From Candidatus Uhrbacteria bacterium (GTDB taxonomy: Bacteria; Patescibacteriota; Patescibacteriia; 2-12-FULL-60-25), in the NCBI GenBank assembly GCA_027330985.1, contig DAHVZI010000002.1, positions 139,162 to 203,161 on the forward strand: a stretch of DNA of 64,000 bases. Direction: 5' to 3'. Position 1 is the stretch's first letter; every line of letters begins with the position of its first letter. The position numbers were made by a program, and so were the translations under genes. Shown one piece after another: positions 2,220 to 64,000 of this stretch. Under the pieces are notes generated by a model that was given only the letters and a program-made list of their open reading frames with translations, was not told the DNA's origin and searched no databases.

Positions 2220-2250
2220 TTGACAAAAAGGCGAGTTTTTCCTATTGTTT
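2220..2250 (+). promoter_or_regulatory. sigma70-like promoter (TTGACA-17-TATTGT)
   Basis: TTGACA at about 2220, a 17-nt spacer, then TATTGT, upstream of the wHTH fusion gene. Confidence 0.4.
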
Positions 2251-2256
2251 GATTAT

Positions 2257-2289
2257 CAATAAACGTTGATTATGTATCAATATGTTAGA
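2257..2289 (+). promoter_or_regulatory. putative operator: two TTGAT-N-ATCAA inverted repeats
   Basis: ttgattatcaa and ttgattatgtatcaa are arranged in tandem. They overlap the RBS and start codon of the wHTH gene at 2282. Confidence 0.45.
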
Positions 2290-4105
2290 TAAGCTTTTTG
2301 GATCCAAGACACGAGTCGTCATCTTGTCTTTATTCTTCTCTGACCCCGAACAAGAGCTGTATATCCAAGAAGTCATCAAACGTACGGGTTTGGATCCAGC
2401 CAGCGTCCATCGCGAGCTGACTAAATTGAAGGAGCTCGAGATTCTGGCGTCACGAGATAACGGGAACCAGAAGAATTTTTACCTCAACAGCAAGAGTCCG
2501 TATCTTGATGGACTGAAGAATCTGCTCAAGACCTATGAAGCCGAGTCCCATAAGGACGCTTTTTTCCTGTTCGAGGAATTCTTCGGTTACGGCCCTCAGA
2601 TCGCGGCGGATTTCATGAATGTCGCGGTCTCGAACGCTTTGTTCGAAAAGCTTGGGCTGAAGAGCAGGCTGACCAAGACGATCACGATCTACGAAGATGA
2701 GTATTGGAAAGCCCATTTCATCAAGCAGGAATTCGATGATGTTTCGCGGGAGATCGTCGATCTGATGATCCAGCGTCCGGAATTCTTCGTGGATTTCAAC
2801 CGCGAGTTGATGGCCTGCTCGAACGAGTTGATGGATTTTTCGAATAGCGTCCTGGCCACCAACCTTTCGGGAATGACCGATATCCGATTGGGTGAATTGT
2901 ATGAGAAGGCATTTTCCCTGTATGAGAAGGCGCATATGATGGGTTGGCCGCAGAACGCAGCTGATTTCGGACAGGGCATGCTGAGCAAGTATTTGAGGCG
3001 ATATCTCTCGGACAAGCTGGGGCCTGGGCGGCAAGGCGAGTTGAATGACCTGTTCATAGCCCTGACTACTCCTGAGGAAGAAAGCTATGCCCAGAAGGAA
3101 TGGCGCGAGTTGGTGAAGATATATGACCGCATCAGTTCCGATCCAGTCGCCCGGCAACTCTTCGCAGGTTCAGATCTGCATCTGATAACGGAAGAATTGC
3201 CGCAAAAGAACGAGGCTATCCATGCATCGATAAGGAAGCATGCCAAGGAATTCGGTTTTTTGGGTTATGGGGCGACTGGACCTGCCTGGAACGAAGATTA
3301 TTTCATCGATATCCTGGCGAGTTTCGCCCGACAAGGGAAACGGGCGGATGCCTTGTCTGAAGAAGCGGGTCAGAACAGGAAAGCGTCGCAGAAGACCTTG
3401 GCTGATTGGGAGCTCGCGGCGGGATTGGATGAAAAGCATAAAGCGATCTTCAACATAGCCCGAAGCTTCGTGTTCACGAAAGGTTTCCGTAAAGATGTGA
3501 TGTTCCATCATTGGTGGGTAATGGAGAACGTATTGCGGGAAATAGGAAGACGGAAGTATCTCTCGCTCAAGCAGGTCAGGTTCATGCATCCGCGTGAGAT
3601 CTCCGCCATGATGAAAGGCCTGAAAGTGGACACGAGCGATTTGAGCCAAAGGCCGAAGTTCAGCGTATTCTTTTCCGATGGTCCATACGATTCCGACGTC
3701 ATCTTGACCGGCGAGAAGGCAAAGGATTTCCTTTCCCGTTTCGAGTTCGTGACGGATGCGCAAGTCGAAGTGAACGAGCTGCATGGCGAATGCGCGTCAC
3801 CGGGCAAGGTGAGGGGTTTGTGCAAGATCGTGAATAGCGTGGCTGATATGGCGAAGATGGAGAAAGGCGACGTACTTATCTCCTTGGCGACCAGTCCTGA
3901 ATTGGTGCCGGCCATCAAGCAGGCGGCGGCGATCGTGACGAATGCCGGCGGCATAACATGCCACGCGGCGATCATCTCACGTGAGCTAGCCATTCCTTGC
4001 GTCATCGGGACGAAGAACGCGACCAAGGTCTTGAGGGACGGCGATCTGGTGGATGTGGACGCGGGTCATGGCAAGGTCAGCATCCTCGAGAGATCGGCGA
4101 TATGA
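2282..4105 (+). CDS. winged-helix DNA-binding domain fused to a PEP-utilising-enzyme-like kinase core with C-terminal mobile phospho-His domain
   Basis: N-terminus LFGSKTRVVILSLFF...VHRELTKLKELEIL is wHTH-like and shared with the gene at 51821. The C-terminus GGITCHAAIISRELAIPCVIG...DGDLVDVDAGHGKV matches the PEP-utilisers swivel His motif (GGxTSHAAIxAREL). Confidence 0.7.
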   Translation: MLDKLFGSKTRVVILSLFFSDPEQELYIQEVIKRTGLDPASVHRELTKLKELEILASRDNGNQKNFYLNSKSPYLDGLKNLLKTYEAESHKDAFFLFEEFFGYGPQIAADFMNVAVSNALFEKLGLKSRLTKTITIYEDEYWKAHFIKQEFDDVSREIVDLMIQRPEFFVDFNRELMACSNELMDFSNSVLATNLSGMTDIRLGELYEKAFSLYEKAHMMGWPQNAADFGQGMLSKYLRRYLSDKLGPGRQGELNDLFIALTTPEEESYAQKEWRELVKIYDRISSDPVARQLFAGSDLHLITEELPQKNEAIHASIRKHAKEFGFLGYGATGPAWNEDYFIDILASFARQGKRADALSEEAGQNRKASQKTLADWELAAGLDEKHKAIFNIARSFVFTKGFRKDVMFHHWWVMENVLREIGRRKYLSLKQVRFMHPREISAMMKGLKVDTSDLSQRPKFSVFFSDGPYDSDVILTGEKAKDFLSRFEFVTDAQVEVNELHGECASPGKVRGLCKIVNSVADMAKMEKGDVLISLATSPELVPAIKQAAAIVTNAGGITCHAAIISRELAIPCVIGTKNATKVLRDGDLVDVDAGHGKVSILERSAI

Positions 4106-8933: not shown

Positions 8934-11000
8934 ATGAAGAAAGCACAAAAGATAGCTTTGGGTTGTTTTGCGGCCGTCATTTTTTTCCTGTTCGCCGAAT
9001 GGTTTTGGTCGTTGGGCGCAGTCGCATCGGTGGATGTGGCGCAAGTTAGGGTCGAGAAGGTCAATGCGACGGTCGAGATCAGGAAAGCCGGGGAAAAGGA
9101 TTGGCGAGCGGTGGATACGGCGGCTGAAGTCAGCGAAGGCGATACGGTGCGCACCGACGCGGTCGGCAAAGCGGAAATTCGCTGGGGCGACCGTGGAGTG
9201 ACGCGTCTGGATAGCGGCACGGAAGTCGTCATCGATAAGTTACCCGTCGATCTGCCTGTACTTACCAAGATGTCCGTCGGTCTAAGGTTGAATTCAGGAA
9301 GGGTCTGGTCGCGCGTCATGAAGCTCTTGGATCTGGACAGCACCTTCGAAGTCCGGACGAACGAGGTAGCGGCAACGGTACGTGGCACTTCCTTCGGGGT
9401 TATCGATTCCGCAGAAGGCGCGGACGTGGTTGTCACGGATTCTGCGGTCAGCGTGATGCCTGCATCCGGCGAGGGACAGCTTTCCATCGTCCGCGAGGGG
9501 CGCGTCGCCAGGTATTCGACCAGCGGCACGTTGGCAGGCATGCGTGATCTGACGGAACAGGACGAATGGCCGAACGAAAACCGCGCATTGGATGAAAAAT
9601 ACGATGATGAGTTGCGTCAGGAATGGATGCAGCGAGCGAAGAAACTACATATCGCGGTCCCGGATTGGTTGGTTCTGATGTCGGAGAATCTGCATTTGAG
9701 TTTGGCGAAAGGCGAACAACGCAGAGTGTTGGCCTCCGAGTACATCAAGCGCGATTTGGCGACACTCGCCCTGGATCCGGCTCGATATGCTTCCGCGGAA
9801 GCTTTCCGTAACCGGAACAAGCAGGCTTTGCCGCTGGTCCTGTCGGGGAAAGAACGGGATAATTTCCTACTGGAGATTTCTCGGACGTTATTTTTGTTGC
9901 GCGGCCAGGAAAAGCGCATCCTTCCGGCTGAAAAAGCTCTCGTGGATTTACGATCCAGTCTGTTCGCGACAGAGGATAACGGCGAGTCTTTCGCACGCGC
10001 TTTGGATTATGACGACCGGATAGATGACATAGTCCAGGCGTTGAAGAGCGGGGATCAGAAAGCACGCGTGGAGAAAACGACCGTGGCCGGTGAATTGGAA
10101 CAATGGCTGGGCAGACTGGCGATCAAACAAGATTATGAGAAGCCAGATGAGAATATGTGGCTCAAGGTCTCGGCTTTGTATGAGCGGGTGAGGGAAGATG
10201 GCTCGGCGCCGCAAGATGCCGCGAACGAGGATACAACGACTTCTACGGAACAGTCCTTGGATGACCTGATAGAACCTGCAGAACCAGCGATGGATCAGGC
10301 GCCGGTTACGGTGGGGCAGTCCACAAACGAAAAACCTAGCGTAGCCGGTACGACGGAACTTCCTTGCACCTATCAGACATTGACCTTAGCGGCGACTCCG
10401 TCTTCCGGCATAACCATCGGGGATAAGGTCACGTTGACCTTGCTGGCGGCCTGCGCCAACGGAAAAGTCGACGACGTTACGGCGCGTTCCGTGTTTTATC
10501 CTGTGGAGAAAAACGCGGGTCGGATTTCGGGCAATATCTTCTACCCCGGAATCGCGGGCAGCGTCATACTCATCGGTTCGATGACGGAGAGCGGCGTGAG
10601 CCGGACAGCGGAAGCGACTATCGTCGTAGCTCAAGCGACCAGGACTCTCGAATCGGTCCAGGTGACCGCATCCGGACCCACATCGCTCTCTACGGGGCAA
10701 AGCGTTCCTGTGGATGCTGTCGCGATATATTCGGATGACCGTTCGCAGGATGTGACGCAACAATGCAGGTGGTCGACCAGCGATCCCAAGATGGCCGCGG
10801 TGATGGAGCAGAGGATGACTGCACTGACCGGCGCCGGACAAGTCGATGCGATATGCACCTATACCGAAGGCGGAAAGAGCGTCTCCGGAGCCTTGACCTT
10901 CACCATCAGCATAGAATCGGCGGCGCAGCCCTCCAGCGGAACGGCTCCTTCGAACTTGAACTATTCCATTAACCTGTTAAGCATCCCGCCATTACGTTGA
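8934..11000 (+). CDS. membrane-anchored FecR-domain protein with C-terminal bacterial Ig-like (Big_2) domains
   Basis: N-terminal TM helix. FecR-like beta region (DTVRTDAVGKAEIRWGDRGVTRLDSGTEVVI). Long helical middle. C-terminal Big_2-like repeats (VTASGPTSLSTGQSVPVDAVAIYSDDRSQDVTQQCRWSTSDP). Confidence 0.55.
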   Translation: MKKAQKIALGCFAAVIFFLFAEWFWSLGAVASVDVAQVRVEKVNATVEIRKAGEKDWRAVDTAAEVSEGDTVRTDAVGKAEIRWGDRGVTRLDSGTEVVIDKLPVDLPVLTKMSVGLRLNSGRVWSRVMKLLDLDSTFEVRTNEVAATVRGTSFGVIDSAEGADVVVTDSAVSVMPASGEGQLSIVREGRVARYSTSGTLAGMRDLTEQDEWPNENRALDEKYDDELRQEWMQRAKKLHIAVPDWLVLMSENLHLSLAKGEQRRVLASEYIKRDLATLALDPARYASAEAFRNRNKQALPLVLSGKERDNFLLEISRTLFLLRGQEKRILPAEKALVDLRSSLFATEDNGESFARALDYDDRIDDIVQALKSGDQKARVEKTTVAGELEQWLGRLAIKQDYEKPDENMWLKVSALYERVREDGSAPQDAANEDTTTSTEQSLDDLIEPAEPAMDQAPVTVGQSTNEKPSVAGTTELPCTYQTLTLAATPSSGITIGDKVTLTLLAACANGKVDDVTARSVFYPVEKNAGRISGNIFYPGIAGSVILIGSMTESGVSRTAEATIVVAQATRTLESVQVTASGPTSLSTGQSVPVDAVAIYSDDRSQDVTQQCRWSTSDPKMAAVMEQRMTALTGAGQVDAICTYTEGGKSVSGALTFTISIESAAQPSSGTAPSNLNYSINLLSIPPLR

Positions 11001-51820: not shown

Positions 51821-52408
51821 ATGCTTGAACACTTATTTGGCTCAAGAACTAGACTAAAATTGCTCATGTTGTTCATACAGTCACCCGACGAGGTGTTTTA
51901 TGTGCGCGAATTGACCCGTCGCGTGGGCACGCAGATCAATGCCGTCAGACGAGAAATCCAGAACCTAAGCGGCATAGGATTGATAATGGAAGGCGCCTCA
52001 AAGGACGATGAAGCCAAGTTGCCTGGCTTGAAGCGTAAGTACTACACGGCCAACATGGATTTCCCGCTCATGCAGGAAGTCCGGGCTTTGTTGCTCAAGG
52101 CTTATGCCTTGATGGAATGGAAGTTGGAGGACCGCATCAAGTCTTTGGGGGACATCCGGTTTCTTGCGCTCATGGGCTATTTCATCGGACAGACCAACCA
52201 GCCGGTCGATGTGTTTGTCGTCGGCGAGGTAAGCAAGTCGGAGCTGAAGGAACTGATGAAGCAAGCCGAAGAAAAATTGGGCGCAGAGATCAACTATACG
52301 GTCATGACCTCGCAGGAGTATGCTTACCGTAAGGAGATGGCCGATCGTTTCCTGGAGGGTATACTGAAAGCGCCAAAGAGCGTGGTCATCGACAAGTTGG
52401 ATAAGTAA
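51821..52408 (+). CDS. winged-helix transcriptional regulator-like protein
   Basis: MLEHLFGSRTRLKLLMLFIQSPDEVFYVRELTRRVG is paralogous to the N-terminus of the gene at 2282. ATG at 51821 was chosen by that analogy. The track ORF begins at 51758. Confidence 0.55.
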   Translation: MLEHLFGSRTRLKLLMLFIQSPDEVFYVRELTRRVGTQINAVRREIQNLSGIGLIMEGASKDDEAKLPGLKRKYYTANMDFPLMQEVRALLLKAYALMEWKLEDRIKSLGDIRFLALMGYFIGQTNQPVDVFVVGEVSKSELKELMKQAEEKLGAEINYTVMTSQEYAYRKEMADRFLEGILKAPKSVVIDKLDK

Positions 52409-52412
52409 CCAA

Positions 52413-52808
52413 GTGACTATGGGTTGGCTTTTCATCGAGACGACCAGACCGGGTGAGTTCCGGTTGGGGTTATTGACGCCAAAGGACGTCAAGGTGAAGA
52501 CCTTCAAAGGGCGCTCTAATTCGGTGTTGACGCGCCTGTCGTCTTTGGTGAAACGGACGGCGCTCAGCAGCCTGAACGGCATCTGCGTAGTCTGCGGTTC
52601 TGGTTCTTTCACTTCGGTGCGCACGGGTGTGCTCATCGCGAACATCCTGGCGCGCAAACTCAAGAAACCGTTAGTTGGGATCAATGCCGAACAGGCGCAA
52701 GACATGGACGAGTTGGTCGCTAAACTGTCGCATGGCAAGCTAAAGCGAAGTACATACGTCAAACCTGTGTATGACGCCGAACCTAATATTACGTTGCCTT
52801 CAGCATGA
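52413..52808 (+). CDS. truncated TsaB/YeaZ-like protein (ASKHA N-terminal half only)
   Basis: LFIETT...SLNGICVVCGSGSFTSVRTGVLIANILA matches the TsaB/TsaD N-terminal motif (GPGSFTGVRIG). Only 131 aa. Confidence 0.5.
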   Translation: MTMGWLFIETTRPGEFRLGLLTPKDVKVKTFKGRSNSVLTRLSSLVKRTALSSLNGICVVCGSGSFTSVRTGVLIANILARKLKKPLVGINAEQAQDMDELVAKLSHGKLKRSTYVKPVYDAEPNITLPSA

Positions 52809-63282: not shown

Positions 63283-64000
63283 ATGCATGAGGCGACATTG
63301 AGGTTGTTGGAACTTGGGTTGAGCAATAAAGAGGCAAGCGTGTATCTTGCGATGTTGGAGATCGGACCAGCTGGCGTACAGGATATAGCGCAGAAAGCCG
63401 GGGTAAACCGCTCGACGACTTATCTGACATTGGATGAACTAAAGAAGCGGGGGTTGGCTTCATCCAGTACGGAGAACAAAAAGACCCTGTTCACGGCGGA
63501 ATCGCCCTCGCGACTTTCTGCTGTCTTGAACAGGGAACGTGATGAGCTGGAGAGCAGGAAGAAGAAACTGCAGGAATCGATTCCTTATTTCATGGCGCTC
63601 TACAATGCGATCGATGACAAACCGCAGGTCAGGTTCTTTGAGGGCGAAGAGGGGATAGTGGCCTTGCGGGAATTCATGGCCCAATCCAGAGGGGAATATC
63701 TGAGCTTCACCGCGATCGATGAAGGGACGTTGCGCATGGCCAACATCAATCCTGCACAACGTCTCAAGATGTCGCGTAAAGTGCATGGGAGGTATATTTT
63801 TTCGTTGAAGCCTAAGTTCGCGATCCCGAAGATGGATCTGACGAATTGGCAGGTCAAACAGCTCCCGTACGGCGCTTATCCTTTTACGGGCGAGATAAAT
63901 ATCGTGGATAATAAAGTCGCGGCCTATGTGGTCAAGAACAAGCCGCTCGGGATCTTGGTCGAGAACAAAGAGATGACGGATCTGTTTCGCGCCATGTTCA
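63283..64000 (+). CDS. TrmB-family transcriptional regulator (3'-truncated at window edge)
   Basis: Not in the ORF track because it is open-ended. My translation gives MHEATLRLLELGLSNKEASVYLAMLEIGPAGVQDIAQKAGVNRSTTYLTLDELKKRGL..., the TrmB N-terminal HTH. Confidence 0.6.
   Translation, partial: MHEATLRLLELGLSNKEASVYLAMLEIGPAGVQDIAQKAGVNRSTTYLTLDELKKRGLASSSTENKKTLFTAESPSRLSAVLNRERDELESRKKKLQESIPYFMALYNAIDDKPQVRFFEGEEGIVALREFMAQSRGEYLSFTAIDEGTLRMANINPAQRLKMSRKVHGRYIFSLKPKFAIPKMDLTNWQVKQLPYGAYPFTGEINIVDNKVAAYVVKNKPLGILVENKEMTDLFRAMF

Follow-up and report, generated by a model that had tools for sequence, protein, structure and literature searches.

What does a protein do that joins a DNA-binding fold to the phosphohistidine domain of a dikinase, and does such a protein act on its own promoter? 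This question is raised by a gene for a 607-amino-acid (aa) protein that lies near the start of a 64,000-nucleotide (nt) stretch of Candidatus Uhrbacteria bacterium DNA (assembly GCA_027330985.1, contig DAHVZI010000002.1, positions 139,162 to 203,161; G+C ∼54%), referred to below as the window. An earlier note made from the sequence alone, here called the original prediction, had proposed a winged helix fused to a self-contained kinase core, with palindromic operators at the start of the gene. Our analysis points to a modified picture, in which the protein is the phosphoryl-carrier and acceptor-binding half of a split dikinase, equipped with an ArsR-like winged helix, and works as an autoregulated bifunctional enzyme-regulator ("trigger enzyme"). 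We give this reading slightly better than even credence.

Domain architecture of the 607-aa protein

The open reading frame (ORF) is intact, and its start codon could be fixed because the N-terminal signature ML(D/E/N)xL(F/I)xS is kept in 25 fused homologues. In the C-terminus, the only Pfam domain above its threshold was the mobile domain of the phosphoenolpyruvate (PEP) utilizers (PF00391), which covered aa 527-597 with an E value of 9.5e-23 and 80 bits against a cut-off of 23.1, and the structure of PEP synthase (PDB 8a8e) matched the protein at E 6.6e-24. The catalytic motif GGITCHAAIISR (aa 556-567, nt 3947-3982; GGITCHAAIISRELAIPCVIG when extended to aa 576) conforms to the published swivel consensus GGxT[SC]HAA[IV][IV][AS]R (PMC12167813), including the phospho-accepting His561 (CAC codon, 3962-3964). 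This histidine is followed by 46 residues up to the C-terminus, as in rifampin phosphotransferase (RPH), and the swivel is related by homology to the His domain of enzyme I of the phosphotransferase system (PTS). Searches of Pfam and NCBIfam gave no match to the PEP-utilizers_C TIM barrel (PF02896). Both the catalytic context of the histidine and the lack of a PEP/pyruvate TIM barrel had been foreseen in the original prediction.

At the other end of the protein, aa 1-88 have ArsR topology and matched the fold of dimeric ArsR/SmtB repressors, the C-terminal alpha5 helix included; a flexible linker (aa 85-92) lies behind them. No helix-turn-helix (HTH) model of Pfam reached its gathering threshold (HTH_5, 15.4 against 22; HTH_20, 16.3 against 27), and the ArsR-type model NF033788 of NCBIfam scored 21.1 against a cut-off of 55. 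With this topology at one end and the PF00391 match at the other, the proposed fusion of a winged-helix DNA-binding fold to the phospho-His swivel domain of the PEP-synthase/PPDK/RPH superfamily held. The winged helix was also said to be shared with a regulator whose gene starts at 51821, and BLASTP agreed (32% identity, E 3e-13). This paralogue is a full-length match to PDC-M05A of PADLOC (E 4.9e-26), a candidate anti-phage defence protein without known function. In the 607-aa protein the PDC-M05A match is partial (aa 3-83 on profile positions 8-87 of 201); since it is confined to the winged helix, assignment of the protein to a known defence system was rejected. The ORF that comes next after the paralogue (52413-52808) gave a TsaD-fragment match only. 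At 63283-63999 on the forward strand, cut by the window end, lies a gene for yet another winged-helix protein, the third in the window; it belongs to the TrmB type (Pfam TrmB, E 4.4e-14) and is weakly similar to the winged-helix profile of the fused family.

The middle region had been described as resembling the nucleotide-binding part of PEP-utilizing kinases. This description did not hold: Pfam showed no match to PPDK_N (PF01326, ATP-grasp) at E≤1 and the modelled domain is all-alpha, not alpha/beta, which together rule out a nucleotide-binding ATP-grasp. The PEP-synthase models of NCBIfam reached only positions 354-460, the swivel part, and the PRK08296 models, which have a similar length and a C-terminal swivel, likewise matched in the swivel part only. 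A profile made from the middle domain alone found nothing in the PDB by sequence; the link between this domain and RPH is drawn from structure, from collinear architectures and from aa 391-500. By structure, RPH was the best global match of the protein, with 5hv1 alignments of 446 aa and 323 aa. By sequence, a phmmer match reached beyond the swivel domain as far back as aa 391, covering RPH 657-866, and placed K400 on Arg666 and K404 on Lys670 of RPH-Lm, with only moderate alignment confidence in this region. In RPH, both residues are part of the acceptor-site network that holds the transferred phosphate (PMC4844700); in the 25 homologues, K400, R403 and K404 are each at least 90% conserved. 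Scores against single-chain RPH-type families were all far under their cut-offs (for RIF_Ptrans_rph, 67 bits against 999).

The collinear architectures were provided by two relatives, P0076 (808 aa) and P0160 (829 aa), which combine PPDK_N, the middle domain of this family and the swivel in the order of RPH; the RPH-type model PRK06241.1-3 and P0160 align collinearly over positions 7-522. Because the same domain sits between PPDK_N and swivel in these proteins, we identify the middle domain as the second-substrate (acceptor) domain. The 607-aa protein is thus an "RPH without ATP-grasp", with the subunit layout of the HpeH/PpsA/CreH type plus a winged helix. Of the RPH-like architecture proposed originally, the acceptor-binding and swivel parts stand and the ATP-grasp part is missing; without a PPDK_N domain the protein is not a self-contained kinase and needs a separate ATP-grasp partner.

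The ATP-grasp partner and the extent of the family

A two-component dikinase mechanism has been established for HpeHI, PpsAB and CreHI (PMC12167813). In nine loci related to the one studied here (numbered with an L), a gene for a stand-alone PPDK_N protein of 312 aa was found within 3.6 kb downstream of the fused gene. The gap between the two genes was 11-72 nt in seven loci (L005/6, L009, L010, L012, L013, L014 and L016); in the two others, genes lie between them, one in L004 and, in L019, over a distance of 3.6 kb (partner coordinates are 8799-9737 in L004 and 7875-8816 in L009). A second fused paralogue of ∼626 aa and unfused swivel paralogues often stand upstream. The 312-aa partners of these loci are mutually 65-81% identical; the stand-alone protein is unusually conserved (65-83% identity) and extremely common, with at least 7,992 clusters at 90% identity. 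Few of these clusters carry an organism name, nearly all of those that do being labelled Patescibacteria or a candidate phylum inside Patescibacteria, and the source labels read "pyruvate, water dikinase" or "PEP/pyruvate-binding domain-containing protein". Genes for His_Phos_1 and HD hydrolase proteins were seen within some of the gene clusters (L004, L022).

The size of the family became visible in an exhaustive profile search with aa 1-495; a word-index homologue search had returned just six members, which greatly understates it. The profile matched 5,338 representative proteins, and 433 of these matches had E≤1e-30. The top matches were mostly ∼500-520 aa long and without winged helix, which was present in ∼25 of the top 150 representatives, or about one in six. 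The fusion of a DNA-binding domain to a split dikinase is recurrent in Patescibacteria, under uninformative source names ("PEP-utilizing enzyme" or "hypothetical"). Larger assemblies were found as well: P0020 (2309 aa) has an internal PPDK_N plus four acceptor-plus-swivel modules, P0015 (1506 aa) has three modules, and a HAD phosphatase is added in P0112. Tandem fusions of two to four such modules occur among P0015, P0020, P0021, P0027, P0044 and P0112. In L015, the winged helix (105 aa, 687-1004) and the middle-plus-swivel part (479 aa, 1007-2446) are separate adjacent ORFs, which is either a natural split or an assembly frameshift.

One subgroup of fused proteins (P0032, P0034, P0046, P0050, P0055 and P0065) has lost the catalytic His motif (TCH) and kept the winged helix and the middle domain, from which it follows that the scaffold can persist without phosphotransfer. 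The KxxRK(E/D) patch is retained by most of these His-less proteins and has been lost by P0032. P0046 (L021, 3940-5721) has no PPDK_N gene nearby and a very short leader.

Inverted repeats at the promoter of the gene and of its relatives

The 607-aa gene is divergent to a VanW gene, the promoters lying back-to-back. Directly behind the TTGACA-17-TATTGT promoter of the gene (Table 1) stand two inverted repeats with TTGAT/ATCAA half-sites, a placement that puts them over the expected start of transcription and a short leader. At a spacing of 17 nt from the first, the second repeat moreover forms a direct repeat of TTGATTAT. The original prediction had laid the repeats over the ribosome-binding site and the ATG; both repeats exist, but they abut the ATG at 2282 without overlapping it, and no Shine-Dalgarno sequence is recognisable ahead of this codon. 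TTGAT-N0-7-ATCAA occurs twice in the 64 kb against 0.78 expected, both times at this promoter, and when the 60-nt promoter region was shuffled 20,000 times, a tandem pair with a common half-site arose in 15 cases. In the whole window there is just one other tandem pair of 5-bp palindromes that share a half-site (TTCCG, 9791-9817); it falls inside an ORF with a FecR domain (8934-11000) and is probably fortuitous.

A structured 5′ leader or riboswitch was considered and rejected, as Rfam found nothing in the window and the leader RNA folds no better than its shuffles (z = −0.46). Since this fold is not significant and since, in the repeats of the relatives described next, the left arm precedes the likely start of transcription, a DNA operator is favoured over a role in RNA.

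Orthologous promoters showed the same TTGACA-17-TAnnnT core. An inverted repeat with arms of 8-22 bp, the left arm over the −10 box and the right arm reaching to the ATG, was found at 8 to 10 of the 14 orthologous promoters (arms of 11 bp in L003, 16 in L004, 11 in L005, 12 in L010, 8 in L013, 22 in L014, 15 in L015 and 12 in L016), and L023 has one of this kind with 12-bp arms. Shuffled sequences equalled the repeat in at most 3 of 500 cases for L003, L004, L010, L014, L015 and L016, in 13 of 500 for L005 and in 27 of 500 for L013. Arms upstream of fused genes (n = 23) had a median of 8 nt and were longer than those of 82 control genes, with a median of 5 nt (p = 4e-8), a comparison that is weakened by the higher AT content upstream of the fused genes (0.80 against 0.62 for the controls). 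The repeat sequences differ between lineages; a half-site centred on TATAAT/ATTATA is common to proteins with the identical recognition helix ANVHKELANL. The 626-aa fused paralogue has the same promoter layout with a different repeat, and the unfused paralogues and PPDK_N genes have no promoter or repeat of their own. Taken together, the rarity of the tandem pair and the repeats at the orthologous promoters, of which the latter make the stronger argument, support the autoregulation proposed originally, and the winged helix probably represses its own promoter.

Two further observations concern these promoters. In L004, L009, L010, L012, L013, L015, L016 and L020, the 604-aa gene has a second conserved inverted repeat, TAT(T/A)GTA-N3-7-TAC(A/T)ATA, close ahead of its −35 box (about −60 to −80 relative to the ATG), which may be a further operator or an UP-like element. 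The promoter of the L009 homologue, a protein of only 35% identity, has the palindrome TTGAT-ATAT-ATCAA at about −40 to −27 relative to its ATG (6001); it has the same half-sites as the repeats in the window and could be due to chance in AT-rich DNA.

The repeats bear on an explanation that we regard as unlikely, namely that the winged helix has a role other than in transcription and serves dimerisation, docking of the ATP-grasp protein, or tethering of the dikinase to a nucleic-acid or polymer substrate, the last modelled on the carbohydrate-binding modules of glucan water dikinase; another factor would in that case bind the promoter repeats, or these would be structural. It would suit this explanation that every Pfam HTH match stays under its gathering threshold, that the nearest winged-helix match, PDC-M05A, is a candidate-defence protein, and that HpeH-HpeI complexes are transient only (PMC12167813), so that an added docking domain could help. 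The recognition-helix core (H/K)-R/K-E-L is moreover rather conserved, yet the repeats of the orthologues differ greatly, and perfect arms of 15-22 bp suit a hairpin or cruciform better than an operator. What speaks for a regulator is the fold, which agrees with that of dimeric ArsR/SmtB repressors down to alpha5, the enrichment of long repeats before genes with a winged helix and their absence from unfused paralogues and PPDK_N genes, and the common half-site that goes with an identical recognition helix.

The same promoters can be read in favour of a phosphorylation-controlled transcription factor that is not an enzyme, a possibility that comes close to the idea of the original prediction and that we place on the unlikely side without dismissing it. 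Here the ATP-grasp kinase would charge His561, and the phospho-state or a ligand of the middle domain would switch the winged helix, giving a non-canonical His-phosphorelay one-component regulator loosely like the PRD regulators phosphorylated by the PTS. The winged helix with its promoter palindromes agrees with such a factor, and so does the kinship of the swivel to the His domain of PTS enzyme I. The His-less subgroup, with one member standing alone without PPDK_N, fits a ligand-sensing regulator, and the shared ATP-grasp gene often has two fused paralogues ahead of it. Against a pure regulator stand the conservation of the basic acceptor-site motif K400/R403/K404 and the composition of the family, most of whose members (∼500 aa) have no DNA-binding domain and resemble plain enzymes, some being tandem or HAD-phosphatase fusions. 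In addition, no regulon is visible, the TTGAT/ATCAA pattern being found nowhere else in the 64 kb.

Table 1. Features of the locus and of the winged-helix paralogue (window coordinates)
Feature	Position	Strand	Evidence or remark
Sigma-70-type promoter: −35 TTGACA (2220-2225), 17-nt spacer, −10 TATTGT (2243-2248)	2220..2248	+	10/12 consensus positions
Palindrome 1, TTGAT-T-ATCAA, TTGATTATCAA, candidate operator	2249..2259	.	Directly behind the −10 box
Palindrome 2, TTGAT-TATGT-ATCAA, TTGATTATGTATCAA, candidate operator	2266..2280	.	Ends 1 nt before the ATG
Coding sequence, 607 aa: winged helix, acceptor-binding domain and swivel phospho-His domain	2282..4105	+	
Winged helix-turn-helix like that of ArsR/SmtB (aa 1-88), built of five helices and a beta-hairpin wing	2282..2545	+	
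Middle domain, aa 92-495, mostly alpha-helical, counterpart of the RIF/acceptor-binding domain of RPH-type dikinases	2555..3766	+	
Conserved motif KGFRKD, aa 400-405	3479..3496	+	phmmer alignment; conservation in 25 homologues
PEP-utilizer swivel phosphohistidine domain, aa 500-603	3779..4090	+	PF00391; PDB PEP synthase 8a8e
Paralogous winged-helix protein, 195 aa; only the N-terminal domain in common with the 607-aa protein	51821..52408	+	

A difference between strains was noted at 1270-1313, where the window is ∼0.8 kb shorter than two 99%-identical relatives (L001, 8168-9029; L002, 4216-5077), in which a gene for an alpha/beta-hydrolase (233-259 aa), missing from the window, lies between those for a CMAS methyltransferase and VanW.

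Enzyme, regulator or both

On the reading of an autoregulated split dikinase, a separately encoded ATP-grasp protein of ∼312 aa would present ATP, the swivel His561 would be pyrophosphorylated and would then keep the beta-phosphate, and the charged swivel domain would dock onto the helical middle domain. There the phosphate would be passed to a small-molecule acceptor, the K400/R403/K404 patch acting as Arg666 and Lys670 do in RPH. Support for such an ATP-dependent transfer through phospho-His consists of the conserved His motif and the basic patch K400/K404. The winged helix, probably as a dimer, would bind the TTGAT/ATCAA palindromes behind the −10 box and repress its own promoter, and in most relatives this repression would also govern the co-transcribed ATP-grasp gene. 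Substrate occupancy or phosphorylation state would presumably tune DNA binding. The domain assignments, the lack of an ATP-grasp domain, the conserved catalytic motif, the linkage of relatives to PPDK_N and the excess of inverted repeats at these promoters are observations; phosphorylation in trans, the acceptor, DNA binding and any coupling of the two activities we infer.

Several points weigh against this reading. No stand-alone PPDK_N gene was found in the 64-kb window or in the 10 kb upstream of it by tblastn and local hidden Markov model searches, and the latter region contains a canonical 803-aa PEP synthase. In L003, L022 and L023, which include the closest relative, the available 2-6 kb showed no PPDK_N either. 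That the source genome encodes an ATP-grasp partner for the 607-aa protein is an assumption, and here lies the main gap of the argument. In the acceptor site, Glu667 of RPH is replaced by Gly401 in the alignment. At the promoters, besides the bias in AT content already mentioned, the repeat arms in the window are 5 bp long and not significant when the longest arm is taken as the measure (383 of 500 shuffles); the same applies to L007, with 5-bp arms like those of the window (397 of 500 shuffles), and L012 has no clear inverted repeat at its promoter. At the opposite extreme, perfect repeats with arms of up to 22 bp are unusual for an operator of the ArsR type.

Some of these points could be taken to mean that the protein is a degenerate or orphan remnant, the partner having been lost in this lineage along with catalysis and the palindromes being chance products of an AT-rich promoter. 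The absence of PPDK_N within ∼70 kb and the short arms are in line with such decay, as is the neighbourhood of the gene, which is not conserved between the window and L003. We nevertheless consider it very improbable. The ORF and all catalytic motifs are intact, the protein is 99% identical between strains and shares 52% identity over its full length with P0002, and the tandem palindrome is rare by shuffling. The 312-aa PPDK_N protein serves dispersed paralogues, and adjacency is not needed.

Comparison with known systems places the protein closest in layout to HpeH, PpsA and CreH (PMC12167813). These share with it a length of ∼500-600 aa, an acceptor-binding domain of the RPH type, behind which a swivel His domain with the GGxT[SC]HAA[IV][IV][AS]R motif forms the C-terminus, the lack of ATP-grasp and TIM barrel, and an ATP-grasp domain on a separate protein of ∼310-390 aa, which is encoded next door in most relatives of the 607-aa gene. 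They differ in that the 607-aa protein adds an N-terminal winged helix, has no adjacent partner gene in the window, has a middle domain too diverged for sequence detection, and comes from Patescibacteria and not from an aromatic-compound degrader. RPH (PDB 5HV1/5FBS; PMC4844700) agrees in the swivel His at less than 50 residues from the C-terminus and in the aligned pairs K400/R666 and K404/K670; it is, in contrast, a single chain with an N-terminal ATP-grasp (aa 1-314), which the 607-aa protein lacks, and has neither a DNA-binding domain nor, at the position of Gly401, a glycine.

With the ArsR/SmtB repressors (ArsR, CzrA, SmtB and BigR) the likeness lies in palindromic sites that overlap the own promoter, candidate sites in the present case. 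In contrast to these repressors, the 607-aa protein has sub-threshold Pfam scores and no recognisable metal-sensing sites, and its winged helix does not stand alone but is joined to an enzyme module of 520 aa. Functional precedents for the proposed autoregulation come from proteins with an N-terminal winged helix fused to an enzyme. In BirA, the winged helix is joined to a small-molecule-activating enzyme, and the protein regulates the genes of its own pathway. The archaeal riboflavin kinase/regulator RbkR likewise combines a winged helix with a kinase and controls genes of the pathway to which it belongs (PMC5397151). The catalytic folds of both are unrelated to that of the 607-aa protein, in which the enzyme portion supplies just one of the two halves of a split dikinase. 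Full-text literature searches found the papers on two-component dikinases and no mention of a fusion to a DNA-binding domain or of this branch in Patescibacteria, in keeping with the original prediction, which knew of no description of the combination.

A wider proposal, which we put forward as speculative and consider doubtful, is a phosphorelay of the Patescibacteria in which one conserved ATP-grasp protein charges a set of swivel-His carriers, the winged-helix members, the 607-aa protein among them, being transcription factors whose DNA binding is set by His phosphorylation or by the phospho-acceptor ligand. If true, a new kind of gene regulation, dependent on His phosphorylation and assembled from dikinase components, would operate in organisms that have few classical regulators; interest in the locus would rise if His phosphorylation proves to govern DNA binding.

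It was not until 2025 that the two-component small-molecule dikinases were recognised as a subfamily, and then only from the catabolism of aromatic compounds. The locus described here reveals a very large unstudied branch of these dikinases in Patescibacteria, with thousands of acceptor/swivel clusters at 50% identity. If the model of an autoregulated split dikinase holds, it would offer a testable case of enzyme-coupled autoregulation in organisms that are not culturable alone, a handle on phospho-acceptors, which may be scavenged metabolites or toxins, and a compact ligand-responsive repressor/operator pair for synthetic biology.

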